64,000 nt of DNA, from assembly GCF_020745735.1 (NCBI RefSeq), contig NW_026869299.1:62001-126000 (forward strand), given 5' to 3'. This stretch comes from Hemiscyllium ocellatum (lineage: Eukaryota). Of the stretch, positions 31,716 through 64,000 are shown piece after piece. A model generated the notes under the pieces. It was not told the origin of the DNA and ran no database searches. It worked only from the letters and a program-made list of their open reading frames with translations. The number at the start of each line of letters is the position of its first letter. Position 1 is the stretch's first letter. Made by a program: the position numbers and the translations under genes.

Positions 31716-31719
31716 AAAC

Positions 31720-33830: not shown

Positions 33831-33914
33831 TAGACTAACTGCTCAGTGTGTCCCTGGTTTTCCTCGGAGTGGTGTTATTTTCCGATCGAGAATACTCTGC
33901 AATGATTATAATGA

Positions 33915-34211: not shown

Positions 34212-34759
34212 TCAGGGCTGGGTGTGGTCGCGAGGGAAACGTGTCTGCTCCAGTCAGTGAGATGTCAGGGTGAGCTCCTGAGGAGGGGGCAAGGGGGAGG
34301 CTGGTTTCCACTCCAACCAGCACAATATTGTGTAGTCGGTGGGGTGTGAGGGAGAGAAGGTCAGGGTCAGTGTGGGCTCTGAGGAAGATGTTGAGTTGGG
34401 TTCAGATCAGATGAGGGTTGTGGAGGAGTCTGGATGGGGTGGGGGGTGTGAGTTGGAATGGGGGAGTGGGATGGGAATGTTGCTCTGGAGCCCAGAGAAA
34501 AAGTGGATTTCGCGATTACCAAACAGTTGGAGTATGTTTTTCAACTCGGAACTTTTTGTTGTGTAATTATTAAGCTTGAGTAAGTTAGAATCCTCTGAAA
34601 GTTAAAGTTTCCAGTTGCACAGAGATTACCCTGACAGAATTTTCAATTTTTCAGGAAATTCCCTTGGCTTCAGCCACATCTCCAAAAATTCCATAGACCC
34701 CACAGTGCAATTACAATTTATACTGCTTCAGTGACTAGCGAGAGACTTTAAAACAAACC

Positions 34760-36165: not shown

Positions 36166-36184
36166 GGGGATTTGGGGCATGGGT

Positions 36185-38600: not shown

Positions 38601-38639
38601 CCGTTCCTACTCCAGACGCCACCCACTTTTCAACTGACA

Positions 38640-40640: not shown

Positions 40641-40696
40641 CTCATCAAAAGATAACGTGAGCATGACCAAAGGTGCCAGGGTTCCCACATTTTTTT

Positions 40697-41017
40697 TTAG
40701 ATTAGATTAGATTAGACTTACAGTGTGGAAACAGGCCCTTCGGCCCAACAAGTCCACACCGACCCGCCGAAGCGCAACCCACCCATACCCCTACATTTTA
40801 CCCCTACCTAACACTATGGGCAATTTAGCATGGCCAATTCACCTAACTTGCACATTTTTGGACTGTGGGAGGAAACCGGAGCACACGGAGGAAACCCACG
40901 CAGACACGGGGAGAACGTGCAAACTCCACACAGTCAGTCGCCTGAGTCGGGAAATGAACCCAGGTCTCAGGCACTGTGAGGCAGCAGTGCTAACCACTGT
41001 GCCACCGTGCCGCCCAC
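40697..41017 (-). mobile_element. HE1 SINE (tRNA-derived, V-domain), young
   Basis: Reversed (TCTAA)n tail TTAGATTAGATTAGATTAG; reversed 5' GTGGGCGGCACGGTGGCACAGTGGTTAGCACTGCTGCCTCACAG; CpGs retained. Confidence 0.9.
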
Positions 41018-41385
41018 TTGTCCATGAACTTGGATAATTTCTGTGTCTGGTAAATTATTACAGAAGGTTCATATGCAACTGGCATCCATCCTGGCGCCAT
41101 TACATCAATGCCTGAAAGAGCCTTGGAAATGGTCTCATAGACTGTAGCTTTTGATGAAGTAAAAAAACAACTATCGTCCCCTGTGTTGGCATAACATGCT
41201 TCCAAGAAAGATTGGGAATTGATGTGAAATCTCTTCTGATATGGCATCAAGTGATATGAGCTCATAGTCCACAGGTAAGGATTGCCCAGTAGCTGGGACT
41301 TTGGCTGGTGCAGAGTGTACATTAGCCCAAATAGGAAAAAGAGGATTGGTGGTCCTAATTTCCATTAATAACCTTCATGGGTCGC

Positions 41386-41607
41386 AAAGTGTGGTGCTGG
41401 AAAAGCACGGCCAAACAGGCAGCAGCAGAGGAGCAGGAGAATCAATGTTGAGCATAAGCTCTTCATCAGGAATGCAACATTCCTGATGAAGAGCTTATGC
41501 TCAACAACAATTTTTATGCTCCTCGGATGCTGTCTGGCTGGCTGTGCTTTTTCAGCACCACACTTTTTTACTTTGATTTCCAGCAACTGCAGTCCTCACT
41601 TTCTCCC
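41386..41607. mobile_element. Penelope-derived inverted-repeat mini-element with two hammerhead-like arms
   Basis: AAAGTGTGGTGCTGGAAAAGCAC..GTGCTTTTTCAGCACCACACTTT, with a perfect 29-bp inverted repeat at 41446-41474 and 41478-41506. Confidence 0.8.
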
Positions 41608-41808
41608 AGTTGATTTTAACCTTCACGGGTGACAATTTGTGATAATAACAAAATAGTGCCGGCAGTAGCTTTGTGATGCACACAGCAGTGTGCTCTAATG
41701 TTAACTGCTTGTGCTTACAAATTAGAACACCATGTCAGGAGGCTGAATAGCAAATGTGATGCATTGAGCCTCTTTTGAAAGGCATTTGGTATGTAAGGAC
41801 AGCTGTAT

Positions 41809-42082
41809 CAGCATGGTCACAGGACAGTTAGCACTGCTATCTCACAGCACCAGGGATCTGGGTTCGATTCCAGCCTCAGGTGGCTGTCTTTGTGGAGTTT
41901 GTATATTCTCCCTGTGTCTGCATGAGTTTCCTCCCATAGTCCAAAGATGTGCAGGTGTAGGTTGGGTGCATTAGTCAGGGATAAATGTAAGATAGGGGAA
42001 TGGGTCTGAGTGGGTTAATCTTCAAAGGGTCAGTGTGGGCTTGATCGGCCGAAGGGCCTGTTTCCACACTGTACAATCTTTA
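41809..42082 (+). mobile_element. HE1 SINE (older), inserted into a Gypsy integrase remnant
   Basis: TTAGCACTGCTATCTCACAGCACCAGGGATCTGGGTTCGATTCC head and GCCGAAGGGCCTGTTTCCACACTGTA tail. It splits ATGTAAGGACAGCTGTATC|..GTTGTCC, which is contiguous at ~50030. Confidence 0.85.
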
Positions 42083-43966
42083 GGAATGCTAATTCTGTAA
42101 TGTTGTCCAATAATCTGGTGGAACGAGCAGTTGAATGTTGAAGGCAGACTTAAAGAAACAGCCTACACCTTCACTCGATATCATGCTATCACAGTTTCTG
42201 TTTGATTTATAGATCCAGCCCTCATGCAACGAATTATATACCTCTATCAGAGTTGTGACTGTGGAAAAGATTCCACACCAGGTTAACTTTGATCTTCCAG
42301 GACATTGAGAAAGGTGAAATGACTTCAGGAGCACCAAGGCCCACTGCAATGCTCTTCTACATGAGAGGGGCTGTTTATTTCATGGGACAAACTTTGGTGT
42401 TGAAACCGTGGGAATGGCCCTGCATGGGTAAGAGACATGGTAGCATTGAGGACAATGTTTGGGTTGAAGAGGTGGTCCTGAACAAGCATTTGGAATACAT
42501 GATAGCTGTGTCCTCTCCAAATGGCCAAGAGCAAACTGTACCCAGTCATTCCGAATACCTGGCAAGGCTGTCAAAACCTGTTAATTCTCCCCATCCTCCC
42601 AGTGTCGAAGAAACCACTGAGGGAGAGATGGACACAGCAGCTGTCACAACATTGCTGGCAGACGATGAAGAATGTCTGCTCAGATGCTCCAAGGGCAAGA
42701 GGCAGTCACAGTCTGGTATGCGCCAGCACTATCCAAGCCAGAGTTTGAGGAACCAGACCTGGTGGGAAGACATCCCAGGAGATGCCACAGGAAGAAGAAT
42801 GGGCATAAATCCTAGGACTTCGAGATGGAGGAAAGTAATTATTGGAGCGAGGTCAGCCAGCTGAACATCATTGAACAGAATTTCCCAAGTTGGGGCTATG
42901 AATCTGGTCCAATCAGGGAGTCCTGACTGCTCATTCAAGCAGCTGACTCTGTGAATACTAGGTCATTATCATCTACTGTCCACATATGAGTTTTGGTCTG
43001 CATACTGCTAAGCAATACCCAAGCCTTGGACGAAATTGACAAGACCGTCTGGAAAGAGTAGAATATCCTAGGGGAGCTCCCAGATGCCACAACCATGAAT
43101 ATTTTCAAAGAAATGGAACATGTCTGACTGTGGTAACTATTGGGGAATATCCCTTACGTCAATCACTGCCAAAATCCTTCTCAACTGTCTCCTCCCTGTG
43201 GTTCCTCTGCTCCCATGTCAGCATCTGAGCTTTGATCTTTCCTTGGGTTAGTGAATTATTACGGAAAATGACCTAGCCTCCATTTTGGCAGCTTAGGTAT
43301 GCTATTCAGAAAGGGATAGCCTTACAAATAGTGACGTTGCCAAGAAGTAGCCTTTTGGCAAGTGAAAACACAGATTTCATTGTTTAAAGTCTTGGCAAAG
43401 AATAATCCCCTTGTGAGATGTGTTGCTGGCTCATCGATGGCTCAACAGGGAGGACTGTCCGATTAGTGTCCGTTTCCCAGACTTCAGCTGATGCCAAATG
43501 AAGATGCATCGCATAGAGAAACAAAGTTTGGCAGGAATCTTTGTGTGAGAAAGTTCAGTCAATGCCTTTCTATGCATACATTTGAAACAGTAATGGACCC
43601 AAACCCTTGTTAAGATGAGCTGAAGAGGACAGGGCCATCCCACTTCTAGGTTCTGGTCAAATTCAGCTGTTATTAAGTGCATACAATTACAAGTTGGAAC
43701 ACCAAGCAGGCGGTCAAGTGGTTAATGCCTGAAGTCAACTCCCAGTGATGGATACACTAGAAAAGTCTGTTCTGGTTTTAAACTTTCTGCACACCCTTCC
43801 AGTCATCTCTGACAATCTCCGATTAGAACAAGGTCCCGTACTGGTGAGAAAAAAGAAACAACTGCAGTGTTAGAAATTAAAAAATCGTCATAAGCAGGAT
43901 TGAATCGTTTGTGGACCTGGTGAGATCAGATGGCCACTGAAAACTGCATACTAATATGGGGAACAA

Positions 43967-44058
43967 GGCTGAAAAATGTGTTGCTGGAAAAGCGCAGCAG
44001 GTCAGACAGCATCAAAGGAGCAGGGGAATTGGCGTTTCAGGCATAAGCCCGTCTTCAG
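43967..44058 (-). mobile_element. Penelope terminal fragment with hammerhead motif (cleavage triplet mutated)
   Basis: Minus strand reads CTGAAGA-C-GGGC TTAT GCCT-GAAAC-GCC. Confidence 0.7.
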
Positions 44059-45492
44059 CTCCAGCAGGGTCGTCCTGTGATTTCCAAAATTAGGATGTTG
44101 ATAAGAATTTATGTTTGGCCAGGATTAGATGCTGTGATAGCCATGTTGGTGGGGCAGTCTCCTGAGTGCCAATAGGGACAAGAATTGACTGGCCAGATAT
44201 AACCTGGATTCAGTTATATTTTGACTATGCCATTGCATCGCCTCGCTTCTCTGCACATCGCATCGCGTCACATTACGTCACATATCGCATCGCCCCTCCC
44301 CTCCCCTCGGCTGAGTACCCCAGGATCCCAGTGTGGCTTTCGGCCAGAGAGTTATCCATTGAACATGATTTTCACTGCAGTATATGGCCTTCTCGAATCT
44401 TTAAAAAGGCCTTTAACATCATCAATCGGGAAGAATTTCTGGAGCGTTCTTCGTTGCTTTAGTTGCACCATGATGTTTGTCACCATCCTTCACCTGCTCC
44501 ACATCAAAATGACAAACAGCTTCAACACCTACCCATTCGCCCTCTGAACCGGTGTCGAGCAGGGTATGTCATCACCGCAACACTTCTGAGTCTACCTCGC
44601 TGCACAACTTCACTTCCGACAAGCTGCCCATGTTTGATCCAAGGGGGCTTTAGTTGTGGTTCTGAACCATTGCTGTACCAGATGCTCTTAGTGGGGATCA
44701 GTGTGAGTGATGTCTTATTTTTAGTTGAAATATGCAGGTGTACTTTCTCTGAATTTTAAACCGTTATTCTTCATTTCCCAGGAGTTTTCAATTTGCGACA
44801 GAGCAGAGATTTATTTAATTGAAAAGAACGTTTAATTGTTTAGTTTTTTATTTGGTTGAAAAGAACAAATGCTGGCGAACTCAGCAGGTCAGAGAACATC
44901 CACGAGAGAGGGTAGCTAGTATTTCAAGACCAAATGAGTCCTCATCAGAGCTGTTCATGTGTTGTCTAATTTGCTTGAGTATATTTTTATTTTGGCCCCC
45001 TGTAGCCCCTGCCCACAAGTTGTTGGTGGGGCAGGGAAAGCCAGTTTTTGCCTGTTAAACAAAAAAGGCACTATTGCTCTGGGGAAAGCTAGAAAGAAGT
45101 AAACACAGTGAAAGCAGTTTAATTTCTGTTTTGAATGAGGACACCATTTTTCCTGGTGATGTGTCTGATTCAGGAATGTCTGACGCAAGCAGTATCAGGG
45201 CATGTCGGTTTTATTTTTTCATTTACATCTTTGTTTTTAAAAGAGTGGGGGATTGTTTTGCAGACTGGAGGCCTGTGACAAATGCAGGGATTGGTGCTGG
45301 GTGTAATGCCATTTTTCATTTTGGTAATGGATTGGAATGTGAATATGAATGTGAATGTTCAACTGCATCAGGAAATTCAATGCCGGCTACAAAACTCATC
45401 TTTGCGCGTGAGGCAGTTTACTACATTGGACAAAATGTGCTGTTTAAACCATTGGAATGGCATGCATGGGGAAGGGGCATGGTCGAAGTAAA

Positions 45493-45705
45493 AGGAGAAG
45501 GTGAGGACTGCAGATGCTGGAGATCAGAGCTGAAAAAGCGCAGCAGGTCAGGCAGCATCCAAGGAGCAGGAGAATTGACGTTTCGGACATAATCCTTCTT
45601 CAGGAATGAGTGATGAAGAAGGGCTTATGCCCGAAGCATCGATTCTCCTGCTTCTTGGATGCTGCCTGACCTGCTGCGCTTTTCCAGCAACACATTTTTC
45701 AGCTC
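45493..45705. mobile_element. Penelope-derived inverted pair of terminal fragments; one hammerhead core intact
   Basis: Minus strand of 45575-45606 reads TTC-CTGAAGA-A-GGAT TAT GTCC-GAAAC-GTC. The opposite arm is decayed (GAAGC). Confidence 0.78.
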
Positions 45706-46011
45706 ATGGTCGAAGTTAAGGGCAGGTCCCATGATGTTGGAGAGGCGGTCCTGAAGAAATGTGAGGATCACACGATAGCTGTAACCCGCAAGTGGCCAAG
45801 AGCACGGCATAACCAGCTCCTCAGAACATGTGGCAAGGATGTTCTCGCCTGTGGGTTCTCCTCATCCTGCCAGTGTAGAAGATTTGAGGGCAAATGTGGC
45901 AGCCTTGATGCCATTACCAACTGCAGAAGAAGACAAATTTCTGCTGAGATGCAAATGGTGGTTGACAGTCCATCACGTGGCGACAGTAACCAAGCTAGAG
46001 TCTGAGGAAAA

Positions 46012-46125
46012 AATGAGGTCTGCAGATGCTGGAGATCAGAGCTGAAAATGTGTTGCTGGAAAAGCGCAGCATCCAAGGAACAGGAAATTCGACGTTTCGG
46101 GCATAAGCCCTTCATCATTCCTGAT
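46012..46125 (-). mobile_element. Penelope terminal fragment (collapsed inverted pair)
   Basis: TTCGACGTTTCGGGCATAAGCCCTTCATCA joined to TTCCTGAT. Confidence 0.7.
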
Positions 46126-47689
46126 TGGCAGATATGTCAGGTGTCCTGCTCCAAAAGTCATCTCTATGAAAGCCAGGTCAGTGTTTTGTACTGTGCATGT
46201 GGAAATTCTTGAACTGCATCCAGCGGCATATTACACTCAGGGAGTTCAGTTATCGCCTAGCCTTGATGAAAAGGCAGACCTCCAGCTCAAGAACAAGGCT
46301 GCAGATGCAAGTGGTATTCCCCCTGAAGCATTGAAGTGTGGAGGCACTGAGCTCCCACTGTAACTGTAACTGTATGTCCTTGTGTACCCTATCTAAAAGG
46401 AGGAGAGCATCCCGGGGGGCTCCCAGATGCCAAAGTTATTAGCTTTGTCAACAAAGTGAACATGCCAAACTGTGGTAACTGCAAGGTAAAATCCCTGATG
46501 TCGACCATTGGAAAACTCATCACCAAGGTCCTTTTCAAGTGGCTCCTCCCTGCGTTTGAGGAACTCCTTCCAGAGTCTCAGTGTGGCTTTGGCCCCAGAA
46601 AGTTACAATGGACATGTTTTTCACTGCTGTCTTGGACCCTCATGGAGCTTACAAAGTCCTTTGACACAATTAATTGAGAAGCATTTGTGAAGTGTTCTTC
46701 TCCAATTTAGTTGCAGTCTTTGGCCTGATCCACAACAAAGTGTAAATCATTATAATGGCAAACAGGGTCACCACCTGCCCATTTCCCCTCTGAACCAGTG
46801 TCGAACAGGGCCAAGTCATCACCTGAACACTGTTCTGAAACTATTGCTGCAGGATCTCAATGCCGACAAGCTGACAACTTTTGCCCCAATAAGACTTTAA
46901 TTATAGTCCTACATTGTCGCTGTCCCAGAAGCTCTTGATGGGGATCAGTGTGAGGTGTAAGTTATGTACAGCTGTACTTCCTCTCGATTTTATGCATCAT
47001 TGTTCCTTTCCATGGAGTGTTCAATCATGACAGTGCAGAGAGGATTCATTTATTCAGTTATTCAGGCAGCATCCATGAGAGAGAGCAAGCTAAGACTTTG
47101 AGTCGAGCTGACTCCTCGCCAGAGCTGTTCATTTATCATTTGTTTTCTTATATTTGCTTGAGTTTATTTTTATTTTGGACCCCTTTTGGCCACTGCCTAA
47201 AACTGGTTGTTGCAGACATTGTCAACGGTGAGCCAATTTTTGTGTGTGTGTTTGTTTTTGCCATTCCATAGAGTCATAGTATCTTCATTTTTCGTTGACA
47301 CACTGATAGTTGCTTTAATTCTTGTTTTGAAGTAAAAAAAAATCACCAGTTTCATCCAAATGTTTGTTTGGAAATTCTATTTTTTTTTGGTAGTTCTTGG
47401 TGAATGATAATGTGTTGAGCGAGGTTTAATTTTGTTGACCCCACTCCAACATTGGGCCCCATCTAGTCTTGAAAGAGTAGAGTGTTTCACCTGGTGCTGT
47501 GCCTGTCTTGGGATTTTCTGATGAAGGAAATATCAGGTGTTCTTGGTTTCTTTCCTTTTACATCTTTGGTTTTATCAGAGTGGAGGATTGTTGATCAAAC
47601 TGGAGACCTGTGATGAATAAAGGGATTGGTGCTGGGTCCATTGCCATTTGTTATTTATGTAAATGGAGTAGCATTGAGAATATAGGAAA

Positions 47690-47885
47690 CATGGATGCAC
47701 GTATGAAACAAGCTGCCAGAGGATGTGGTGGAGGCTGGTACAACTGCAATATTTAAAAGGCATCTGGATGGAAATACGAATAGGAAGAGTTTTGATGGAT
47801 ATGAGCCAAGTGCTGGCAAGTGGGACTGGATACATTTAGAATATGTGGTTGGCATATTGAGTTGGGCTGAAGAGCCTGTTTCCAT
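47690..47885 (+). mobile_element. CR1 3'-end insertion specific to one array unit
   Basis: GCTGCCAGAGGATGTGGTGGAGGCTGGTACAACTGCAATATTTAAAAGGCATCTGGATGG..GCTGAAGAGCCTGTTTCCATG; absent from the equivalent site in other units. Confidence 0.7.
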
Positions 47886-48329
47886 GTTATACATCTCTAA
47901 CTCCATGTTGAGTGATTTTGCAGATGTCACCAAGTTTGCCGTATAGTAGACAGTGAAGCAGGTGATCAAAGATTCCAAATGTATCCTGATCAAGTGGGCC
48001 AATGGGCCAAGGAGTGGCAGATGGAGTTTAGTTTTGATAAATGTGAGATGTTCCATTTTGCTTAGATGGACAGGGCAAGACTTTCACAATTAATGGTAAG
48101 GCATCTGGAGAATTGCCGAAGAGCAACCTAAGGTTTGGTAGAACCTCTATAATGCGGAAGCCGGCCATTTGGCCTGTTGAGTCCACATGACCAGTACCAC
48201 TTGGTGTGCGTGCAAATGTAGAGGCAGCATTCATGAGGCTGGAGAGTGAAGCAATAATAAAACCGCTATATTTACTGTATCCACTGTAATGGTCGTCGCC
48301 TTTGTGGAGATTTTGATGAAACAGTGATC

Positions 48330-50300
48330 TGTATTTTGCAGCCAGATAAATAACCGATCCATCACATTGAGGACTTAAACGCAAAACATTAAAGGCTTTG
48401 TACTTCATGAAGCTGGATATGAGCCATGTGAAACTGCCATTGGGATTTGATGAAGATCCCCATAAATATGCTACAATTACCAATATCCGATACTGTTTTT
48501 TGTGTTGGGATATCATCAACTCGTGAAATTGTCCAGTGAACAATGGAGAACATTTCACAAGGTGTACCCCAGGATACGGTCGTTATGAATGATGTACGAA
48601 TAACCGGGAAGAGGATTTTGAGAGATTGTGCACAGCAATTAAATGGTTCTTCAGGGCCTTAGAAGGAAAAATGTGCATTCCAAGGCAGCCCAAGTGACTT
48701 CCTTGAGCTATAGCATCATCAAGACCAGGTTAAACACATTGGAAAATTAAGTGAGGTCAATCAAGGGTGCTCTGGTACCCCGCAGAGCTTTGATCTTACC
48801 TTGGTTGGTTAAATATTATAGATGCTTCTGTAACGTCCTGTCTTCCATCTTGGCAGCTTGGATTTGCTATTCAGAAATGATCAGCATTGCAAATGATCTC
48901 ATCACCCAGAAGTAACCTTTAGGGAAGTGAAAAAGCAGGTATTGTAGATGGTGTTGGCACACAATAGTCCCCAGTGAGCTGTAGTGCTGTCATGTGATGC
49001 CTCCCAATACACTTTGAGGTGACTGCTGGCCCACTGATGCCTTGGCAGACATGGTATATGTTTCTCAAACTTTGGCTCATGTCAAATGAAGACATGTCCA
49101 GATAGCGAAGGAAGGTTTGGTGATAATCCTTTGTGTGAGAAAATTCCACCAATACCTTTTAGGACATCAATTTGAAATATCGATGGACCACAAACCGTTG
49201 CCAGGGAGACCTGATGGTGTCAGGGCCATCACACCTCAAGCTTCAGGTCAAATTCAGTGGGCTGTCATGCTGAGTGCATAGCCCACACAGGTTTCTGAGG
49301 GTTTATCATGTGATAAATGCAGTTGTGTGAAGCCTCCTCCCTCTGGTGGGTACACCATGGTGGGTGCCAGCAGTGAAAGAGTCTGTTCTGTTTTTAAACA
49401 TTGCGGGCATGCTTCCCATCATCTCTGACCATATCAGACTGTGGGTACAAAAAGACCCCTTCCTGGTGAATCACAAACAGCTGGTGGTGTTGGAAATGAA
49501 AGGGGCATCACAACCAGAATTGAATCCTTTCTGGACTTGGTGAGACTAGATGTCCATTGAGGAAGACATAGTAATACGGGGAGCAAGTGTGTTTGCCCCA
49601 AGCAAAGGTCACTGTCAGATACTGGCTGAACTCCACCAGGGTCTTCCTGTGATTTCCAAAATGAAGGTGTTGACAAGATGTTTTGTTTGGTGGCCGGGAT
49701 CAGATGCCGATGCAGCCATGTTTGTGGGTCAATGGCTAGGGTACCAACAAAGACAAAGATTGCCACCAGCAGCTGCACCACATCCATAGAACTGGACGGA
49801 TAACACCTGGTGCAAGTGCTTTCACGGTGGTTATCCATTTAATCATTGTGTACACACAATGTGATTAGATGTTCATGAAGTGCATTTGTCAAATGTGGGG
49901 ATTACAACTAAAACGTTGTGAGAGTATTATTCAATACACAGAAACTGGACATGCTGGTCACAGCTAGCAGGCCATCATTTAGCAGGAGGGAGTCTTGTGT
50001 CTTTCCTAAAGGGGAATAATATTCAGCATGTAAGGACAGCTGTATCTGTTGTCTGATAGTCTGGGGGAAAGAGCAGTCCAAACATTGAAAGAAAGTTTAA
50101 AGATACAGCCTGCAACTTTAGTCAATACACAAGTGTCCCAATTTGTGATTGATTATAGAACCAGCACTCACACAAATACAGGAACAGAAGCATTGGTATT
50201 GCAGAGAAGACTCCACTCCAGATTAAATCTGATGTTCTTCCACCTTGTGGAGTGTGTGAAAAGGTGTCATGAACACCAATGCTGGCTGTAAGACATTTCT
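48330..50300 (+). pseudogene. Decayed Gypsy pol (RT-RNaseH-integrase) within an array unit
   Basis: Remnants of KYATI, CDAS, GVRKFHQYL (TGTGTGAGAAAATTCCACCAATACC), KMKVLTRCFVWWPG and GERAVQTLKE. Many frameshifts. Confidence 0.8.
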
Positions 50301-51703
50301 ATACGAGAGAGACAGTTTAGTCCAGGAGACAAAATTTGCTGTTAAAACAATTGGAATTGCCATGCATGCGTAAGAGGCATGGTCGAATGATGTACACTTC
50401 TCAAGGCAGAGAGGTGATCCTGATTCAGTATTTGTGTCAACTGATAGCTATAACATCAAAAGTGGGGCAGGAAGAAAACATACCCAGCCACTCGGAACAT
50501 CCAACAGGCTGCCAGAAACTGTGGGTTCTCCCTGTCCTCCCAGTGTCCAAGAAACCTCTGAGGGCAAGATGGACATGGCAGACATTACCACCAGAAGAAA
50601 AAGATGAATTCCTGCTGAGATGCTCAATGGGTAAGAGGTAGGCCGTAGTCCAGTACATGCCAGCAGTATCTGCGCCAGACTCCGTGGAACCAAATCTGGT
50701 GTAAGCATGCCCCAGGAGAGGCAACAGCAAACAGAATGGGCCTTTTTCTCAGGACTGTGATGGGGAGAAAGGTAGTGATTGAAATGAGGTCAGAGAGGTG
50801 GACCTCACTGGATATGATTTCCCCGATTGGGGCAGTTGACCTGGTCCAATCAGGCAGTCCAGGCAGACTGATGTGTTAGCAGTTCTGCTCACTCGAGTTT
50901 CCAGCTCTGTAAAGTCTCGCTGAAGTATTACGCAGTGTGCATGTGTACATTGTTGATTTGCTTCGCCCAGCATATTACACGCAAGGAGCTCAGCTTTACC
51001 ATATCTTGGATGGAACAGAGATGGCCATCCACCCGATGAAGAAGACGACAGCTGCAAATGGCTCTTCCCGTGAGGCATTGATGTGTGAGGTATTGAGCTC
51101 CCAGTGCAGTTGAATTCCCTTGCCTGAATGATCTGGAAGGAGGAGGGCACCCCAGGAGAGCTGCCAGATGACAAAGTCATTAGTGCTTTCAAAAATGGCG
51201 ACATATCAGACTGTTGTAACCACAGGGGAACATTCCAGATGTTGACCACTGGAAACTCATCACCAACTGTCTCTTCCCTGTGGCTGAGGAACTCCTCCCA
51301 GAGTCTCAGCGTCAGTCAACCATAGTTAAGCACAATGGACATGGTTTTCACTGCTGTATATGTCCCTTTTGAACCTTATAAAGGCCTTTGACATCATCAG
51401 TTGGGATGCATTTGTAGAACATTCTTTTCCGCTTAGTTGTAGCTTAAAGTTTGTAACCATCCTTTGACACTTCCACAAATGTATGCAAGTAGTCGTAATG
51501 ACAAACGGCTTCAACACATACCCAGTCGAGCAGGGCTGTGTTATCAACTCAACACTGTTCTGAATCGACTCCTCTGCAGCATGTCATTGCCGACAATCTG
51601 CCCAGTTTTGAGCCCAGGTGGCTTTTATTGTCGTCCTGTATTTTTGCTGTCCCAGAAGCTCTTGTTGGACTTCAGTATGAGGGTTTAGATACTTTTCTTT
51701 GAA

Positions 51704-52019
51704 GTGGGTGGCACAGTGGCACAGTGGTTAGCAATGCTGCCTCACAGCGCCAGAGACCTGGGTTCCATTCCTGCCTCAGGCAACTGTCTGTGTGGAGTTT
51801 GCACATTCTCCCTGTGTCTGCATGGGTTTCCTCTGTGTGCTCCAGATTCCTCCCACAGACCAATAATTTGCAGGTTAGGTGAATTGGCCATTCTAAATTG
51901 CCAGTCGTATTTGTTGAGGGGGTAAATGTTGAGGAATGGTTATGGGTGGGTTGCTCTTTGGAGGGTCGGTGTGGGCTTGTTGGGGCGAAGGGCCTGTTTC
52001 CACACTGTAAGTAATCTAG
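51704..52019 (+). mobile_element. HE1 SINE inserted in segment X of one array unit
   Basis: GTGGGTGGCACAGTGGCACAGTGGTTAGCAATGCTGCCTCACAGCGCC head; GAAGGGCCTGTTTCCACACTGTAAGTAATCTA tail. Confidence 0.9.
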
Positions 52020-52509
52020 TCTGTGAGCAGTTGTATGACCTCTGGGTTTTAACAAGTATTGTTCCTTTCCCAGGAGTGTTCAATAGCAACAAAGCAGAGA
52101 GCATTTTTTTATTTCGTTGAAAAGAGCAAATGCTGGAGATCACAGTGGGTCAGACAGCATCCATGAGAGAGAGCAAGCTAAGTTTTAGTGTCGAGATGTC
52201 TCCTCATCAGAGCTGTTCATTTATTGTTTGCTTTCTGTGAGGTTAGTTTTATATTGGCCCCTTGTGACCCCTGCCCACGAGTGCTTGGTGGGGACTGAGG
52301 CCAGGGAGAGCCAGTTTTTGATTATTTATTTCCTTCTGACTTTGCCCAGAGGGAATAGTATTTTTTTTGTTTTAGAAATTGGAAGCAGGTTTAGTTTCTG
52401 TTTTTAAGAGCAGAGTGTATGCCGCAGTGTGGTGCCTGATCTGGGAATGTCTGTTGCAGGCAGTGGAGGTTGTTTTTCAGGCTAGAGGCCTGTGGTGAAT
52501 ACACGAATG

Positions 52510-52856
52510 GATGCTGGATCTGAAGTAATCAGAGGATTCAGGGTACAGAGTGAGAGCCTTTTTCAACGGATGGTGATGGTTCGCATGAGGGGACACAGCT
52601 TTAAGTCGGAGTGATTGATACAGGACAGTTGTCAGAGGTAGTTTCTTTACTCAGAGAGTTGTACGGGTGTGGAATGCCCTGCCTGCAACTGTTGGAGACT
52701 CACCAAATGTATGGGAATTTAAATGGTCATTGGATAAACTATGGATGAAAATGAAATTGTGCAGGATAGATGGGCTTCAGATTGGTTCCACAAGTCATCA
52801 CATCATCGAGGGTTGAAGGACCTGTGCTGCGATCTAATGGTCTCTGTTCTATGTCC
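52510..52856 (+). mobile_element. CR1/HER1 3'-end insertion specific to one array unit
   Basis: GAGGGGACACAGCTTTAAG..TTTACTCAGAGAGT..TGTGTTCTATG tail; closely resembles 26540-26845. Confidence 0.75.
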
Positions 52857-55800
52857 TGAACAAACGTGCAGATAACACGATAGCTGCAAATTCTCAAGTG
52901 GCCAGTCTCAAAACATACTCAGCCCCTCAGAACATCCAGCACAGCTGTCCGAACCTGTGGGTTCTCCCAGTCTCCCCAGCCTGTAAGAAACCTCTGAGGG
53001 CAAGATGGATGCGGCAGATGTCTCAGCCTTGACACCTTTTACCTCCCAGCAGAAGAAGATAAATCTTTTCTGAGATGCAAGAAGTTGGCCACAGTACAGC
53101 ACTGGCACCATTGGTCAAGCCAGAGTCCGAGGAAGTGGACCGAGTGGGAAAGTAACTTAGGAAAGTGACAGGAAAGAGAATGGGCCCATGTCCCAGGGCT
53201 TAGAGGAGGATGGAGGTAATAATTGGAATGTAGTCACCCAGTGAATGTCATGAAGTATAATTCCCCTGGTTGGGGCTCTTCAGGGAGCCCTGACTGGCAG
53301 GCGTGTCAGGGGTTCTGCTCACTTGAGGAGACATCTTTGTGAAGGCTAGGTTAGTGTCATGTCCTGTCCACGTGTAAATTGTTGACGTGCATCCTGCAGC
53401 ATGTTGCATGCAAGGACCTCAGCAGTAACCAAGCCTTAGATGAGACAAAGAAGACTGTTCTCCATCTTAAGAATGAGACTGCGGGTGCAAGTGGTACTCC
53501 CCCTGCATGCAGAGATATTGAGCTCCCAGTGTAGCTGCATGCCCTTGTCTGCTTAACTGGAAGGAGGAGAAAATCCCAGGAGTGTTCCCAGATGCCACAG
53601 TCGTGAGTATTATCAAAAAACGGAACACGTCAGACTGTGGTAACTCCAGGGGAATATTCTCAATGTTGAGCATTGGAAAACTCAGCATCAAGGTCCTGTT
53701 TAACTCTCTCATCCTAGTGCCTGAGGAATTCCTCCTGGCGACTGAGTATGGCTTTCTGTCACAGAGGAGCACCAGGGACATGATTTTCACTGCTGCATAT
53801 CGCGTTCTTCGACCTTACAAAGGCGTTTGACACCATCAATCAGGAAGCATTTTTGAAGTGTTCTTCACCACTTTAGTTACAGCATGAAATTTGTCACCAC
53901 CTTTCTCCTGGTCCACAATGACATCTATGTCATCATTATGACATGGCTTCAACACCTGCCTTTTGCCTCTTTGAACTGGTGGTGAGCAGGGCTGTGTCAT
54001 CACCACAACACTCCTGAACCTAAGTTGCTGCAGGACCACTCCACCGACAAGCTACCCATATTTACTCCAAGGGGGCTTTTGTTTTAGTCCTGCACTGTTG
54101 TTGTCCCAAAAACACTTGATGGGGTTCAGTGTGAGTGATAAATTATTTTCAGTTGAAATGAGCAGGTGTACTTCCTCTGGATTGCAAACCACTGTTGTTC
54201 TTTTCCCAGGAGTGTTCAAATAGCGACATAACAGAGAGGGTTTATTCTTTGAAAAAACCAAGTGCTGGAAATTACTGCAGGTCAGACAGTATCCATGAGA
54301 GAGAGCAAGCTAGGATATAGAGTCTAGATGACTCCTCAGCAGAGCTGTTCATTTATTGTTTGTTTTCTTTGATTGACTTGAGTTTCTTTTTATGAGGCTA
54401 CAGGTGCAATAGGGATTCCCCCTGAGGCATTGAGGTGGATGGGCTCTGAGCTCCCAATGCAGCTGCATGCCCTTTTCTGCATTATCTGGAAGGAGGAGAA
54501 CATCCCTGAAGAGCTCCCAGATACCACAGTTGTGAGTGTTTTCACAACAGAACGTGTGAGACTGTGCTAACTACAGCAAAATCTCCCTGATGTTGACCTT
54601 TGGAAAACAAATCACCAAGGTCCTTGTCAACTCTCTCCTGCCTGTGCCTTAGGAACCCATCTCGGAATTTCTGTGTTCTTCAGCCCCAGACGGGAACAAA
54701 GGACATGATTTTTACTGTTATATACGACGCTCTTAGAACTTTCAAAGTCCTTTGACCCCATCAAACAGGAAGCATATGTGGAGCGTTCTTCTCTGCTTTA
54801 GTTGCATCATGAAACTTGTCACCATCCCTCACCTGGTCCAGAACGATGTGTGAGTCATTTTAAAGATAAATGGTTTCAACACTGACCCATTCTGCCTCTG
54901 AACCAGTGTCGAGTAGGGCGATGTCATCACCACAAAACAGCTCTGAATCTACTTCACTGCAGGACCTCACCTCAGATAAGCTGCCCACTTTCAGACCAAG
55001 GGGGCTTGTATTGAAGTCCTGCAATGTCGCTAACCAGAAACCCTTGATGGTAGTCAGTGTGAGCAGTACATTGTTTTTAGTTGAAATGAGCAGGTGTCCT
55101 TCCTCTGGATTTTTAACAATTCCCAGATACCCTCCTTAGGAATGTTCATTATCGACAGAGCGGAGAGAGGTGATTTTTAACATAATTTTTGTTGAAATGA
55201 AAAAATGCTGGAGATTACAGCCAGTTAGAGAAAATCTATGAGAGAGTGCAAGCTAAGATTTTGTGTTAACGGCATTTGAACTGTACATTTGTTGTTTGTT
55301 TTATTTGACAATCTTGACTTTATTTTATTTTGGCACTGTGAGACCCATGCCCAGGAGTGGTTGGTGGACACAGAGAGAGCCAAGTTTTAATTGTTTATTT
55401 CCTTCTGTTTTTCCCTCAAGGAAAAGTGTGCTTTTTGTTTTATAAAGTGAAAGCAGCTTGTGTTTCTGTTTTGAAAGTGTAGAGTACTATGCCTATTTGG
55501 ATGAGTGTGTTGCACAACTTGGTGTTGGTTATCAGACTGGAGGCTTGTGATGAATATATGAATTGGTGATGTGTCCAATGCCGTTTGTCATTTATGTAAA
55601 GGATTTGGTTGAGAAAATAGGGCGCATGGTTTGTAAGGAGTGTTAGGCAGAGTATAATATTGATACATGCAAAATGGTGCATTTTGGTATGAGGAACAAG
55701 CCAAGACCACATTTGGAACGGCCTGTAGAGTGTTGTCGAACAGAGAGCCCGAGGGTTGACAAAACCTCTACAGTGCGGAAGTAGGCCATTTGGCACAACA

Positions 55801-55939
55801 GACCCACACTATCAGTCTCATTTCCCTTACGTGCAAAAGTAGAGGCACAAATCAAGAGCCTGGAAAGCTAACGATGATCAAAGCACTGCAGTGTGCCCTA
55901 TGTGCAGCACTGTTCGAATCCATTGTGTCATTTTGCCTA

Positions 55940-57800
55940 CGTGGAGATTTTAAAGATTTGATGAGGGAATTTTTGAAGCCAGGTATATAACTGATGCATC
56001 ACATTGAGGACTTGTCTGGAAAACCGCAGATGCCTTGTCCTTTACAAAGCTGGATATGTGTCATACGAATGTAGCATTATGCTTCAATGAGGATTCCCAT
56101 AAATATGCTACAGTTAATACCCATAAAGGGTGTAACCACTGTATTTGACTGCATTTGTTTTGGGATATCATCAGCCAATGAATCGTTCCAGTGAATGGCC
56201 GAGAACTGTTTACAAGGTCTACCCACGGTCCCTATTTCTATGAAGATTTGCTAATCACAGGGAAGATCAATAAAAATCATTTAATGTTTGTCCAAGATCT
56301 TAGGAAGAAAGAAAATGTGTTCCAAGGCACCCCAAGTGACGTAATTGAGCTACTGCATGGACAAGTGGATAAGACAGATTTAAAGATAAGGGCAACCAAG
56401 GGTTCATCGGCTCCTATGTCTGCATTGGAGCTTCAGTCTTTCCTTGGGTTGGTGAATTATTACGGAGAAAATTGTGTAATCACCTGGCCTCCATTTTGGC
56501 AGCTGTGATTTGCTATTGAGAAGGGCCTGCTTTACAAATACTCACATCGCCAAGAAGAACCCTTATGGGAATTGAAAAAGCAGCTATCATCATTTAATGC
56601 CTTGGCAGAGAATGGTCTCCAGTCAGATGTGGCACTGACGTACAAAGCATCACCATCTGGTATCCAGTTACTGCTAGCTCACCGACAGAAGGGATTGCCT
56701 TGTCGTACTTGCTTCCCAGCGTTTGGCTGATGCCGAATGAAAATGCATCCAGATGGAGACAGAATGTTTGGCAGTAACCTTTTGTCTGAGAAAGTTCAGC
56801 CAATAGGTTCCTGCAAATATCTTTGATGAAGGAATGCATCACAAAGCCCTGCTCGAGTGACCTGAAGAAGGCAGGGCTATCCCACTTCCAGCTTGAGGTT
56901 AAGTTCAGAAGTGAGCTCTTATTCTGAGTGCATGGATTTACAACTGGGAACACCATATCTGCAGTCAACTGGTTAATGCCTGAACTCACCATGGCGCGTG
57001 CCACCAAAGGAAGAGTTCATTTTAGTTTTAAACATTCTGCATCCCTTCTGCTCATCTCTGACAATATCACACTGTAGATCCAAGAATTTCCTGTCCTGGC
57101 GAAACAAGAACCACTGGTGGTGTTCGAAACTGATGACGAACATCATAACCAGGATGGAATTCTTTCTGGAGCTGGCAAGAGCAGATGACTGTTAAAGATG
57201 GCACACTTATGTGGGGAGCAAACATGTTTGCTCCAGACAGAGGTCATTGTCAGATACCAGCTAAACTCCACCAGACTACACCTATGATTTCCAAAATGAA
57301 GATGTTGGTGAGAGGTTATGTCTGATAGCCAGAATTGGATGCCGATGCAGCCATGTTGGTGGGACAGTATCCACAATGCCAAGAAGGACAGAAATTTTCA
57401 CCAGCAGTGCCTCATTTTCATGGCACTGACCAGGTAGAACCTTAGTTCAGTGACACATCGAATGTGCCGGTCCATTATGTGGGATCTGTACTTTAACGAT
57501 GTCGGTCACAGATAAAGGGTATTCATTTGCCAGCAGGTAGTTTAGTGTATTGCCTAAAATCGAATGGCATTTGCATGTAGTGACAACTGCATGCGTTTTC
57601 TGATTGTATGGTGGAAAGTACAGTCCAAACATTGAGGGCAAAGTTAAGTAAACAGCCGACAACTTCACTGGATGTCAAACTGTCCCACTTTCTCTCTGAT
57701 TATAGAAACACCGCTCACACAACTGCAGTGACAACGCCACCAGAATTGCTAATGTGAAGAAGCCTCCAAGTTAAATCGGATCTTCTCGGATGTTGTGGGG
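55940..57800 (+). pseudogene. Decayed Gypsy pol within an array unit
   Basis: GDFK at ~55942, LELQSFLGLVNYYG in ORF 56191-56508, RNaseH and integrase remnants. Confidence 0.82.
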
Positions 57801-59829
57801 AGAGTGACACGGCATCAGGAAGGCCAATGCCAGTCACAAAACCCCTCTTTGTGGGAGGCAGTTTATTTCATGGCACAAAATGCGCTGTTGAATCGGTGGG
57901 AATGGCCCTGAATGTGTTCAAAGTGAAGTCTGGTCACAAGATGTACAATGCTTATGTCACACTAGTAGTCCTGAACACTTTTGAGGATCACACGATTGCT
58001 GCAACCTCAAGACGTGGTCAGGAGCACAACATACCCAGCCCCTCACAACATTCAGCAAGGCCGTCCGAACCTGTGGGTTCTCCCCCTCCTCCACTCAGTG
58101 TGGAAGAATCGTCTGAGAGTGAGATGGACATGGCAGATGTTGCAGCATTGACACCATTACCATCTGTAGAAGAAGATACATTTCTTCTGAGATGCAAGAA
58201 GTGGGTCACAGTCCAGCCCAAGGCGGCGGAATGCAGCCCCGAGTCCGAAGAAGTGGATCTCGTGGGAAAATGACTCATGATATGTTGCAAGAAAGAGAAT
58301 GGGCCTTTGTCCCAGGAATTAGATGGGGACGGAAGTAATGACTGGGGCACAGTCAATGAGTGAACCTCCTTGAATATATATTTCCAGGTTGAGGCTGTTC
58401 ACCTGGTCTAATCAGGGAGACCTGACTGGCAGATGTGTCGGCGATCTGCTCACTTGAGGAGCTGTGTCGATGAAGGCGAGGTCAGTGCCATGTACTTTGC
58501 CCATGGCGAATTTTGGAGTGCATGCCATAACATGTTACATGCATGGAGTTCAGCAATATCTAAACCTTGGATCAAATAGAGAAAGTGGTCCTCCAGCTCG
58601 AGAACAGGGCTGCAGTTGCAAATGGTAGTCCCCCTCCAGCCTAGAACTGCGGAGGCACCGAGCTTCCAGTGCAACTGAATATCCTTGTCTGCCTTCTCTG
58701 GAAGGAGGAGAGCATCCCAGGAGAGCTCACAGATGCCAACGTCAGGAGTATTTTCAAATAATGGAGCATGTCAGACTGTGGTACGTTCAGGGCAATGTCC
58801 CTGATGTTGACCACTGGACAATTCATCACCAAGGTACTTTTCAACTGTCTCTTCCTTATGGCTGATGAACTCCCTCTGCAGTTTCAGTGTGACTTTCGGC
58901 CTCAGACGGGCACATTAAGCATGACTGCGTAGGGCCTTCTTCAACCTTACAAAGGCCTTTGACACCATCAATCAGAAAGCACTTGTACAGCATTCCTCTC
59001 CACTTTCGATGCAGCATGAAGTTTGTAACCATATGTCACCTGATCCACAACAACGTGCAAATCATCGTAATAACAAGCGGCCTCAACACCCGTCCATTCC
59101 CCCTTTAACTTGGCGTCGAGCATTGCTGTGTCTTCACCACAAAACTGCTCTGAATCTACCTCACAACATCCATGAGAGAGAGCAAGCTAAGATTTTGAAT
59201 CTTGATGACTTCTCATCAGAGCTGTTTATTTATTGTTTGTTTTCTATGATATGTTTGAGTTTGTTTTTATGTTACCCCCTGTAGACCCTGCCCATGAGTG
59301 GTGGGAACAGAGTCCAGCAGAGCCAGGTTTTGATTATGTCTTTTTCTACAGAGTAATAGTGTCTTTTTTGTTCAACTAGTCGCTTTAGGTTCTTTTTGAA
59401 AGAGCAGAGCATATGTCATGGCCTTGTGCCTGTTCTGGGAGTCTCTGATGCAGGCAGTGATAGTTGTTTATCAGATTGGAAGCCTGTGATGAATACAGGA
59501 ATCAATGCTGGGTCGAATGCCGTTTGTCATTTATGTAAAGGATTTTTGTGAGGATTGGCAGGTGGAGTTTAATTTTGTTAAATGCAAATTGTTGCATATT
59601 GGTAAGTGTTGCAGTGCAAGACCTACCCAGGTAGTGGCAGGGCCTGTGGATTGTTGTTGAACCGACAGTCCCAGGGGTTGACAGAACTTCTACAGTGCGG
59701 AGGCAGGCCATTTGACACAATAGGTCCACACCACCAGTGCCATTCGCCTTGTGTGCAAAAGTAGAGTCATGTGCCTGGAGCGCTGAGGGATCATCAATCC
59801 ACCGTAGTTTGCCATAGGAGAGTACTGTT

Positions 59830-61620
59830 GATACCCATTATTGGTCGAGTGCATTTGTGGCAATTTGAAAGAAATGTTGAGCCAGTTTTTGAAGCCAGAT
59901 AAATAACCAGTAAATTGCGTTGAGGAGTTTTACGCAAATGTGCACGGGACTTGTTTGTCACGACGCTGGAAATGAGCTGTGTGAATGTGCCATTGTGATT
60001 CAGTGATGATTCCCATAAACATGCACCAATTAATACCCATGAGGGATGGAAACAATTTCCTTGACTGCCTGTCTTTTAGGGTGTCATCAGCCGGTGAACA
60101 GTTCCAGGGAATGAGGGAGAACATTTTACAAGGTCTACTGCAGGTCGATATTTATCTGAATGATGTGCTAGATACAGTGATGATCAATAAAAATGTGTTT
60201 AATGTTTCTCCAAATCCTTAGAAAGGTAAAAAAAAGCAGGTGGGGTCCAAGGCATCCCAACTGAACTCATTGAGCGTCAGCATCAACAACAGTGGGCTAT
60301 GCACATCCAACAATAACATGAGGTTATCCAAGGGTTCCTCAGTTCCCACATCTGTATCAGTGCTTTAGACTTTCCTTGGCTTGGTGAATTATTACGGAAA
60401 ATTCTGTAATGAGCTCGCATTCATACTGGCAGCTTAGATTTGCTATTCCGAAAGAGCCAACTTTGCAAGTAGCCGAGTCACCAAGAAGTAGCCTTTCAGG
60501 AATTGAAAAAGCAGCTATTGGCATTTAAAATTTTTGCACAGACTACTCCCCAGTGAGATGTGGTGCTGACATGTGAAGTCTCCCCACACAGTATCCAGTT
60601 ACTGCTGGCTCACCGACAGTCAGCAGAGAGAACTGCCCAGTAGTATATGCTGACCAGGCTTTGGCTGATGCCAAATGAAAATTCATCCAGAGTGAGAAGG
60701 AAAGGTTGGTGATAATCTTTTGTGTGAGAAAATACATCCAACCAATATATTCATTTACGTACGTTTGATGTAGCAATGCACCACAAACCTCTACTAAGGC
60801 TACCCGATGAAGACAGGACCATCCCACTTTTTGCTTCATGTTCGAATTCAGACGTGAGCTTTTATTCTGAGTGCATGGGATTACAAGTTGGAACAGCATA
60901 CGTGCAATCAAGTGGTTAATGCCTGCAGCCAACTCCCTACGGTGGGTACACCATGGTGAGTTCGACCAAAGGAAGAATCCGTTCTGATTTTAAAATTCCT
61001 GTACACCCATCTAGTCATCTCTGACAATATCACACTGCGGATACAACTGATGTGTTCAAAACTGCATATTAATGTGGGGAACAAGTGTGTTTGTCACAAG
61101 CAATGGTCACTGTTGGATACCAGGTCAACTCCATCAGGGTCATCCTGTGATTTCCAAAATGAAGATGTTGACGAGAAGTTATGTCTTGTGACCAGAATTG
61201 GATGCCGACACAGCCATTTTTGTGAGTCATTACCCACAGTGCTAACAAGGACAGAAATTGTCACCAGCAGAGCACTATATTCATTGGAATAGCCAGGTAT
61301 TACCTTGGATTAGTTACACATTGAGTGTGCCTGTCCATTTGCGGGATGTATACTTGTAATGATGTTGGTCACAGATAAAGGGCATTCATTTGCCAGCAGG
61401 GAGTTTTGAGTATTTCCGAAAGTCGATTGGGATTTGGCATGTAATGACAGCTGCATCTGTTGTCCGATAGTCTGGTGGAAATAACAGTCCAAACATTGGA
61501 GGAAAAGTTAAGAAAACAGCTGACAACTTCACAGGATCCCATAACATGTTAAATAGCATCTTCGCAGATCTTGTGGGGAGTGGAAAACAACATCTAGAAT
61601 GCAAATGCCGTTCACAAAAA
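59830..61620 (+). pseudogene. Decayed Gypsy pol within an array unit
   Basis: LSFRVSSAGEQFQGMRENILQGLLQVDIYLNDVL (RT YLDD region); TTCCTTGGCTTGGTGAATTATTACGG (FLGLVNYYG). Confidence 0.82.
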
Positions 61621-64000
61621 ATGCTCTTTGTGCGAGAGAGAATTTAAGTCATGGGACAAAATCTGCTGTTGAAACCATGGGAATAGCCCTGCATGGGTAA
61701 GAGGCATGGTCGGGGTGAGGACAGATCCCATGATGTAGAATACTTGGGTCTGACAGTCAGTACTGAACAAATGTGAGGATCACATGATTGCCAGGAGCAA
61801 TACACAGCCAATGCTTCAGAACATCCAACAAGGCTGTCTGAACGTGTGTGTTCTCCTGGTCCACCGAGTGTGGAAGAAATCTCTGAGGGTGAGATGGAGA
61901 CTGCAGGTGTGCAGCATTCTCGCCGTTACCATGTGTGGAAGAAGGTAAACATTTTCTGAGATGCAAGAGGTGGACAGCAGACCAGCACATGCCGACATTA
62001 GCCAAGCCAGAGTCGGAGTTAGTGGACTGAGTCGGTAATTGCCTCAGGAAATGTTGCAGGAAAAAGAAAGGGCCTACAGCTCAAGACTTAGGGCAGAATG
62101 ACAGACATGATTGGTACAGAGTCAGCCAGGGAATCGCATTAACATAATATCCTACATTTCGCTGTTAATCTGATCCAAGCAGAGTGTCCTTACTGTTAGG
62201 TGTGTCATAGCTTTTGTTACACTTGAGGAGCTGTCTCTAAGAAGGCTTAGGTCAGTGTAAAATACTGTGCACGTGTAAAATGTTGAACTGTATCCCACAG
62301 CATATTGCATGCAAGGAGCTCAGCAATCCTCAGTCTTTGATGGAACAGGGAAAGCTGTCCTCCAACTTAAGAATGAGTCTGCAGGTACAATTGGTATTCT
62401 CCCTGAGGCATTGAAGTGGATAAGCACTGAGCTCCCAATGCAGCTTGCATGCTCTTGTCTACCTTATCTGGAAGGAGGAGAGCGTCCCTGGAGAGCTCAC
62501 TGATGCCACAGTTGAGAGTGTTTTCAAAAAAAGAGAACGTGTCAGACTGTGCTAATTACAGCAAAATCTCCCTGATGTCGACCATTGGAAAGTGTATCGC
62601 CAAGGTCCTTGTCAACTGTCTCCTGCATGTGCCCCAGGAACCCATCCCGATATTTCGGTGTGTATTTCAGTCCCAGGCAGGTAAAAAGGACATGAAGTTT
62701 ACTGTTCTATACGGCGCACTTCGTCCTTACAAAGGCCTTTGACACCATCAAATAGGAAGCGTATGTGGAGCGTTCTTCTCAGCTTCAGTTGCATCATGAA
62801 ATTTGTCACCCTTCCTCACTTGATCCAGAACAATGTGTGACCCATCTTAATGACAAATAGCTTCAACACTGAACCATTCTGCCTCTGAACCGGTGTTGAG
62901 CGGGGCTATGTCATCACCATGAAACCGCTCTGAATCTACCTCACTGCAGAACCTCACCACAGATAAGCTGTCCACTGTTAGGCCAAGAGGGCTCGTTTTG
63001 AAGTCCTGCAATGTTGCTGTCCCAGTAACTCTTGATGGGGGTGAGTGTGAGTGATAGGTTGTTTTTCGTTGCAATGAGGAGGTGTTCTTCCTGTGTATTT
63101 TTATCCATTCCCAGATTGCTTTCTCAGGAGTGTTCAATAACGACAGAGCAGATGTGATTTAAAGAAGATTTTTCCTTGAAATGCACAAATGCTGGAAATC
63201 ACAGTGTGTCAGATATAATCCATGAGAGAGAGCAAGCTAAGATTTTGTGTCCAGATGACCCCGCATCCGAGGTGTTCATTGGTTGTTTGTTTTATTTGAC
63301 TAACTTGACTTTATTTTTATTTTGACGCCGTATGACCCATGCCCATGAGTGGTTGGTGGGCACAGGGAGAGCGAAATTTTGATTGTTTATTTTCTGCTGT
63401 CTTTCCCTTGAGGAACAGTGTCTTTCTTTGTTTTACAAAGTGAAGGCAGCTTTTGTTTCTGTTTTGGAAGAGCAGAGTGTATGTCCTGGTACTCTGCCTT
63501 TTGGGACAGAGTTTGTTGCACACAGGGGTGTTGGTTTTCACACTGGACACTTGTGATGAATATAGGAATCGGTGATGTATCCAGTGCCATTTGTCATTGA
63601 TGTAAAGGATTTGGATGAGATTGTAGGCTGCATGGTTTGTGAGGAGTGGTCAGTGGAGTATAATTTTAATACTGTAAAATGTTGCATTTTGGTAAGAGGA
63701 ACAAGGCAAGACCACCTTTGGAATGGTCCGTGGAGTGTTGTCGATCATAGAGTCCTAGGGGCTGACAGAACCTCTACACTGCAGAAGTAGGCCATTGGCA
63801 CAGCAGGCCCACACTATCAGTCCTATTTCCCTTACGTGCAAAAGTCGAGGCACAAATCAAGAGCCTGGAAAGCTAAACGATCATCAAACCACTACAGTGT
63901 GCCCTATGTGCAGCGCTATTCTAATCCATTATGTGTCAATTTGCCTATGTGGAGATTTCAAAGAATCGATGGGCGAATTTTTGAAGCCAGGAATATAACC

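Follow-up and report, generated by a model that had tools for sequence, protein, structure and literature searches.

A chimeric tandem array of retroelement fossils, found mostly beside young IgM genes in Hemiscyllium ocellatum

How sharks multiply and scatter whole immunoglobulin M (IgM) miniloci is an unsettled question. The window analyzed here, a stretch of 64,000 nucleotides from the shark Hemiscyllium ocellatum (positions 62,001-126,000 of the contig that we call C1913; genome label G000), bears on this question, because it carries the constant exons of an IgM gene and, downstream of them, a tandem array of fused retroelement fossils. The genome has related arrays at some 50-60 sites, and most of them neighbour its youngest IgM genes. 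The variable (V), joining (J) and CH1 exons of the local gene are found at -12.1k, -11.3k and -1.1k, all upstream of the window start. An earlier note, made from the sequence alone, had placed the array next to IgM. The gene is indeed in the same stretch, but the array begins about 32.5 kb past its transmembrane (TM) exon.

Architecture and origin of the array

Self-BLAST of the window gave dozens of same-strand off-diagonal matches across 41-64 kb, all of them absent from three of three shuffled controls. The unit is about 4 kb long, is repeated head-to-tail and consists of pieces homologous to retroelements. When real window stretches served as module queries, the order read CR1-like scrap, 70-bp link, Gypsy reverse transcriptase (RT), RNase H, integrase, 3' region, purine tract and start of a long terminal repeat (LTR), and then RTE-like RT, segment X, Penelope-type end and segment Y (Table 1). 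All protein-coding fragments point the same way. Seven Penelope-end anchors (44906, 47079, 52167, 54299, 55240, 59176 and 63226) are spaced by 2173, 5088, 2132, 941, 3936 and 4050 bp. The ordered cassette, the spacings (now reproduced to within 2 bp) and the continuation past 64 kb had all been claimed in the earlier note, with a self dot-plot as the proposed check, and in these points it described the array correctly. The RTE-like RT is however longer than it had drawn (about 570 bp), which reduces X to about 235 bp.

The old units are 64-74% alike by BLAST, with one pair (period 7981) at 82%, and the two fullest units agree at 73% over aligned columns; by eye, 70-80% had been estimated. The description of the array as old and not homogenised holds for these monomers but had missed a young layer, since identities of 88-97% occur only between higher-order blocks. 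On C1913, 47951-50013 matches 67716-69791 at 88%, which gives a period of 19.8 kb and about 1.1 copies. The period is 22-23 kb on C131 (about two copies) and about 26 kb on C126 (about three to four copies at C126:491-583 kb, 91-97% alike), and higher-order repeats are present at many loci. Because many loci carry such 20-26 kb repeats at 91-97%, the array is still being re-amplified.

Table 1. Features of the window (positions in the window; plus and minus refer to the strand shown).
Feature	Position	Strand	Remarks
IgM constant exons	2254..8500	+	CH2 ~2.3k, CH3 ~4.6k, CH4/secretory 5332-5715, TM ~8.4k
Proximal flank A	28298..41019	.	partly co-carried with the array: young C126, C131; older C7, C54, C116
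Chimeric retro-fossil tandem array	41020..64000	+	runs on to window-equivalent 69,789 (C1913:131,789)
Rearranged partial units, proximal array end	41020..47950	+	younger SINE-like (short interspersed element) and Penelope-type insertions present
First higher-order repeat copy	47951..64000	+	period 19,766 bp; next copy from ~67,716
CR1-like RT scrap (reference unit)	55532..55755	+	homologous to dispersed repeats in 8 background sequences
70-bp linker	55757..55825	+	array-only in background sample
Gypsy RT (5'-truncated) and RNase H	55833..57000	+	stops, frameshifts; Pfam RT_RNaseH E 1e-3
Gypsy integrase (disrupted zinc finger and core)	57001..57860	+	homology to dispersed copies; no Pfam match
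Gypsy 3' region, purine-rich tract, first ~175 bp of LTR (~58,331-58,505)	57861..58560	+	
RTE-like non-LTR RT fragment	58610..59164	+	shared ~42-nt internal deletion; X deleted in this unit
RTE-like RT fragment, next unit	62376..62948	+	
Segment X	62949..63184	.	no consistent open frame; array-specific probe
Penelope-type end	63185..63275	-	decayed minimal hammerhead
Segment Y, T-rich	63276..63535	.	array-specific in background sample

The reading frames of the array are riddled with stops, and an RT_RNaseH-type Pfam match was obtained in five of 30 plus-strand frames scanned (best E 3e-8, in the unit near 49 kb). At the top PF17917 loci, no DNA match of the Gypsy module to the array was found. 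The genome was found to match a 35-mer of the integrase region 139 times; 20 of these loci were sampled and comprised 18 dispersed copies, 64-80% alike to the array Gypsy part, and two further arrays. Within several dispersed loci the Gypsy 3' module matches twice, marking LTR pairs, and as these are only 74-81% alike the Gypsy family itself is old. The array piece tracks dispersed LTRs for the length given in Table 1. The RT fragment that follows matches proteins of endonuclease-RT LINEs (long interspersed elements; 411 matches at E<=0.001, best 4e-17, phmmer). The clade names RTE and CR1 are those we presume from motifs, as in part is the naming of the Gypsy integrase. X, Y and the linker were confined to arrays among 53 background sequences. 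Protein searches with two short fragments gave no match. We considered whether X might be an exon or intron of the host that has kept its splice sites, and rejected this, as 13 representatives have neither a consistent frame nor a conservation peak.

The Penelope-type end, on the minus strand, is shaped like a minimal hammerhead ribozyme as described in PMC4209133. Sister ends in the window retain CTGAnGA..GAAAC. The CTGAnGA..GAAA core is kept in six of the 72 array ends, while core, stem II and GAAAC occur together in none, and most ends share identical non-canonical letters after the core. An Rfam scan of 34-64 kb found no hammerhead at E<=1. Judged from their letters, the array hammerheads are dead.

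The chimera formed once and was then duplicated, as had been proposed. In a tree of Gypsy pieces that cover at least 80% of the query, all 30 from arrays form one clade with support 100 against nine dispersed copies, and the RTE deletion of about 42 nt is common to all 13 representatives picked from 29 aligned copies; this speaks for a single origin and for amplification as DNA rather than by new insertions. The longer array branches in the Gypsy tree can reflect older insertion. On C1913, C126, C54, C116 and C7 the units fall into about five recurring old types (69-74% alike), and therefore the multi-unit array predates the copying between contigs. Identity per 50 bp is flat across the unit (0.67-0.80), and together with the dead hammerheads and broken frames this marks the decay of the array as neutral. 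Of the composite satellite suggested in the earlier note, the single-origin tandem composite stands; instead of a single old satellite at one site, however, we find arrays at many loci that have been amplified anew.

Several further observations concern the array and its borders. A short GCATC-type repeat tract (window 44,230-44,310) lies where rearranged partial units join. At 45,493-45,705 and 41,386-41,606 there are hairpins, each built from two short Penelope-type ends in opposite orientation. A match to the Rfam family MIR6024 was rejected as a microRNA, being a hairpin of two opposed repeats that scores far under the gathering threshold. Flank A contains several Penelope fossils, which we take to be GIY-YIG-like, in both orientations (34,859-40,570), including an inverted pair (1.4 kb, 65%). 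The array stops at the end point in Table 1, and a truncated Penelope-type end (window-equivalent 69,795-69,859) sits exactly at its junction with a 170-bp satellite that fills the rest of the contig. This satellite (C1913:131,877-159,574) is GC-rich, has copies about 87% alike and an observed/expected CpG ratio of 0.86, and contains 43-bp sub-arrays. Exact matches to a 100-mer from it number 412; they lie, among other places, at the starts of C188, C189 and C193, on C181 at 37.3 Mb, at C28:477k and on many small contigs. It is a candidate for a major centromeric or subtelomeric satellite.

Upstream of the constant exons, at window-equivalent -11,790 to -11,250, a V with a 23-spacer signal lies about 400 bp from J, and a D-like sequence, YYSGYWGIDYWGQG, stands in frame before J. 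In this one IgM copy, D and J segments thus seem to be joined in the germline as DDJ, while V is still separate. C1913:1-13,084 duplicates 42,772-55,854 at 99.7%; the 13-kb duplicate holds V and J, ends at a 100-N gap and is likely an assembly duplicate.

Arrays across the genome and the young IgM genes

One unit used as a query found at least 40 loci at 83-95%. A probe from X has 254 exact matches and a second one 59, each with a control of 0. Two complete exact-probe lists define 49 arrays on 24 contigs, among them several scaffolds of 33-143 Mb. Twenty-three of the 49 lie at most 120 kb downstream of a same-strand IgM CH4 exon and 39 within 250 kb; 45 are within 1 Mb of an IgM constant exon and two are on contigs without IgM. 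The genome-wide chance expectation for these distances is about 0.13%, 1.1% and at most 4.4%, respectively. In the pooled lists there are at least 59 arrays among the matches listed, with 26, 41 and 52 at the three distances and five on contigs without IgM. Dispersed single copies genome-wide, which the earlier note had named as speaking against a local array, did not turn up; two short partial copies exist, at C7:38.89 Mb and C113:10.78 Mb. A look-alike stretch was not found in the other genomes scanned.

We defined 88 IgM CH4 loci from 150 match rows, after removing those with identities of about 50% or lower and those that were a second fragment of the same locus. Loci with a protein identity of 96% or more were called young (47) and the others older (36), with five broken young-like loci set apart. 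An array lies within 120 kb of 27 of the 47 young loci and within 250 kb of 41. For the older loci the counts, which rest on the probe lists, are 0/36 within 250 kb and 2/36 within 1 Mb. The probes come mostly from young arrays and so favour these; the old array on C54, 618 kb from an older IgM, was missed by both. The IgM loci are not independent, and some small contigs may be haplotype duplicates. Because the loci descend from few events, a Fisher P value is not a valid test of the contrast between young and older genes.

Older arrays, accompanied by parts of flank A and 80-87% alike, occur at C54:77.53 Mb, C116:10.84 and 11.36 Mb and C7:117.15 Mb. The sequence fetched there (120, 90, 10 and 80 kb, respectively) contained no Ig exon, and for the arrays on C54 and C116 the distance to an IgM exon is still 0.4-0.95 Mb. 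On the large scaffolds C17, C19, C54, C55 and C125 arrays lie within 3 Mb of a scaffold end, while those on C5, C7, C113 and C116 are farther away. Upstream of the C7 array (C7:117,193,000-117,202,000) there is a short-period repeat with long open (CPSLEQLNDCLLFL)n frames, probably a minisatellite. Tandem Ig-like constant exons, 33-44% identical to IgM CH4 and probably of other isotypes, were noticed at C62:0.8-3.6 Mb, C74:2.5-2.7 Mb and C59:48.6-49.8 Mb; the complete lists hold no X-probe match on these three contigs.

A probable passenger of segmental duplications, and rival readings

Of 15 distal array ends, seven share one downstream flank (93-98%), four share another (96-99.7%), three are unique and one was not reached. 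Because distal flanks are shared, the array is usually interior to larger duplications, and we reject the idea that it forms the outer edge of the duplicon. Proximal starts are of type A on C1913, C126 and C131 and of other types on C17, C28 and C42; at the young array on C42, no Ig exon was found in 70 kb upstream. Proximal starts and distal ends thus vary, so that many junctions fall in the array, and a shared array block is surrounded by mosaic, variable flanks.

On balance we think that the array is likely a functionless passenger of segmental duplications, and that it probably also provides homology at which unequal exchange can occur. In the course of events that we propose, nested insertions and deletions may have fused CR1-like, Gypsy, RTE-like and Penelope-type pieces; the shared clade and deletion show that this happened once. 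The next three steps are shown by the sequences. Tandem copying of the unit gave about five old unit types, and copying of the multi-unit array with part of flank A to other scaffolds gave the arrays that are now 80-87% alike. A higher-order block of about 20-26 kb was then re-amplified and duplicated jointly with the young IgM genes, at identities of 91-98%. Finally, arrays may have exchanged sequence by unequal crossover or conversion, with copy-number changes and mosaic identity as the outcome, and most of this may have taken place where duplications abound, close to scaffold ends and to a major satellite. The link to Ig duplication that the earlier note had suggested holds as co-duplication with young IgM loci; a causal role of the array is possible but less likely.

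Several points weigh against a mere passenger. The association within 250 kb is tighter for young than for older IgM loci to a degree that a plain passenger does not need. The array moved without IgM at least sometimes, because the older flank-A copies are free of Ig exons over the 40-90 kb fetched upstream. Some of the rearrangement junctions (those of four proximal starts and at least five distal ends) fall within the array, and arrays follow IgM in at least three spacer arrangements of about 23, 35-42 and 64-82 kb. Haplotype duplicates may inflate the counts, one flank pair being 99.7% alike, and as far as the sequence tells some function of the array may exist.

Most of these observations would suit a more active part for the array. 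It might, with or without flank A, be a repeat core that moved between chromosomes alone, captured one IgM minilocus and, by exchange between arrays on different chromosomes, drove the spread to about 50 young IgM clusters. The tight association with young loci, the Ig-free older copies on C54, C116 and C7, the C42 array and the numerous junctions inside the array all favour this. However, 20 of the 47 young IgM loci have no array within 120 kb downstream (some are near contig ends), and the flank shared by IgM copies is left outside the array at C126:649k (window 15.2k), on C28 (17.7k) and on C17 (23.3k), the C126:649k copy having no array. The flank combinations seen are A+1, A+2 and B+1, which require no crossover, and the contrast itself comes from probes mainly of young arrays and from loci of few events. 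We therefore regard the repeat core as unlikely, although it is the alternative to be taken most seriously.

The comparison of C1913 with C131 belongs to the same question. Substitutions per site amount to 0.044 in the array, 0.024 in the flank and 0.029 in the flank-proximal array, and indels to 5.7 per kb in the array versus 1.8 in the flank. The greater divergence of the array would fit exchange among paralogous blocks. Accelerated or AID-driven mutation of the array was rejected, because the flank-proximal part is close to the flank and no AID-type bias was found in this pair (WRC share 0.32 vs 0.31). C131 was also rejected as a proven flank-swap recombinant: since the fourth flank combination is unseen, two breaks in an A+class-1 ancestor explain it.

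It is improbable that the array spread as a transcribed small-RNA locus of the PIWI-interacting RNA type, or another silencing locus, by repressing Gypsy, RTE and CR1 or by insulating IgM; a small-RNA source was among the readings raised in the earlier note. A minus-strand transcript would be antisense to all three families, as their coding fragments are co-oriented, and dozens of copies are kept. However, uniform orientation follows from the tandem copying of one unit, the average identity of 65% to dispersed Gypsy is likely too low for guide pairing, and the array has no conserved peak.

We give very little credit to an origin of the tandem by rolling circle, in which a 4-kb RNA released by a Penelope- or retrozyme-type hammerhead would be reverse-transcribed into a multimer. 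Each full unit does have one hammerhead remnant, and non-LTR retrozymes form tandems and derive from the pLTRs of Penelope elements (10.64898/2026.07.22.740005). Against this, the reported retrozyme consensus is far shorter than the unit, the shared non-canonical letters after the core suggest damage before amplification, and the unit tree is nested rather than star-like.

An assembly artefact, in the array itself or in the number of its copies, is hardly credible: many arrays are on small contigs and C1913 opens with the duplicate by a gap described above, yet the divergence is about 30% between units and 2-20% between loci, the loci are also told apart by independent insertions, and over 52.9-64 kb contigs of four public runs match 29-30 of 30 bins with an identity of at least 97%, which supports the array sequence, although these runs are of one study and of a kind not on record, one possibly from the source sample, and consist of short pieces none of which spans the stretch.

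Comparison with known systems

The number of IgM clusters varies from one to about 100 among shark species (PMC12227049), and in the nurse shark the loci are at least 120 kb apart, with linkage described as largely unknown (PMC2435157). The array accompanies the youngest IgM genes as a neutral marker with several layers, and can be used to order their duplications and to test whether repeat-mediated exchange drives them. If the repeat-core alternative were true, a non-coding array of transposon fossils would have been a recombination core in shark antibody-gene evolution. A four-family chimeric repeat with higher-order structure was not found in the literature searched, which included shark-specific queries that returned no paper and had most subscription papers outside its reach.

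In young mouse KRAB-ZFP clusters, copies of endogenous retroviruses (ERVs) were multiplied by segmental duplication, and non-allelic recombination has been proposed as the driving process (PMC12575710). As there, retroelement sequence gains copies here through duplication with a young gene family. However, these ERVs are separate recent insertions within clusters, while the array is one ancient chimera of four families with higher-order repeats, and it sits next to IgM miniloci that are spread over many scaffolds. Tandem repeats derived from retrotransposons have reportedly also been seen in Lathyrus. The maize repeats CRM1TR and CRM4TR are of this kind and were shaped by deletion and conversion (PMC3648361). 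They share with the array the birth of a tandem from retrotransposon sequence, but they derive from the LTR and untranslated region of one parent family and stay at their loci. The array has a unit of 4 kb from four families and two further segments, X and Y, and its spread accompanied that of a gene family.

Primate core duplicons such as NPIP/Morpheus are common to all blocks, carry the expanding gene and lie mostly on one chromosome (PMC6920530). The array block likewise recurs in mosaic duplications with differing flanks. However, it appears to be non-coding, with neither an intact frame nor a conserved peak in its sequence, it is missing behind some young IgM genes (27/47 have it within 120 kb), and its 24 contigs are not one chromosome. 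With retrozymes and Penelope elements (PMC4209133) it has in common an end of minimal-hammerhead type once per tandem unit. Retrozymes have an intact hammerhead per monomer and a monomer below about 1 kb; the non-LTR retrozyme consensus is reported as 51-972 bp (10.64898/2026.07.22.740005), whereas the array unit is four times the longest of these and its ribozyme is dead in 72/72 ends. The array also resembles D4Z4 in that a kilobase-scale tandem unit is found near scaffold ends, with copies on several chromosomes. Macrosatellites such as D4Z4 consist of near-identical, gene-bearing units of kilobase scale, whereas the monomers of the array are about 30% diverged and homogeneity is reached only at the 20-26 kb level. 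By the features tested, the array is not a classical macrosatellite, a core duplicon or a retrozyme.

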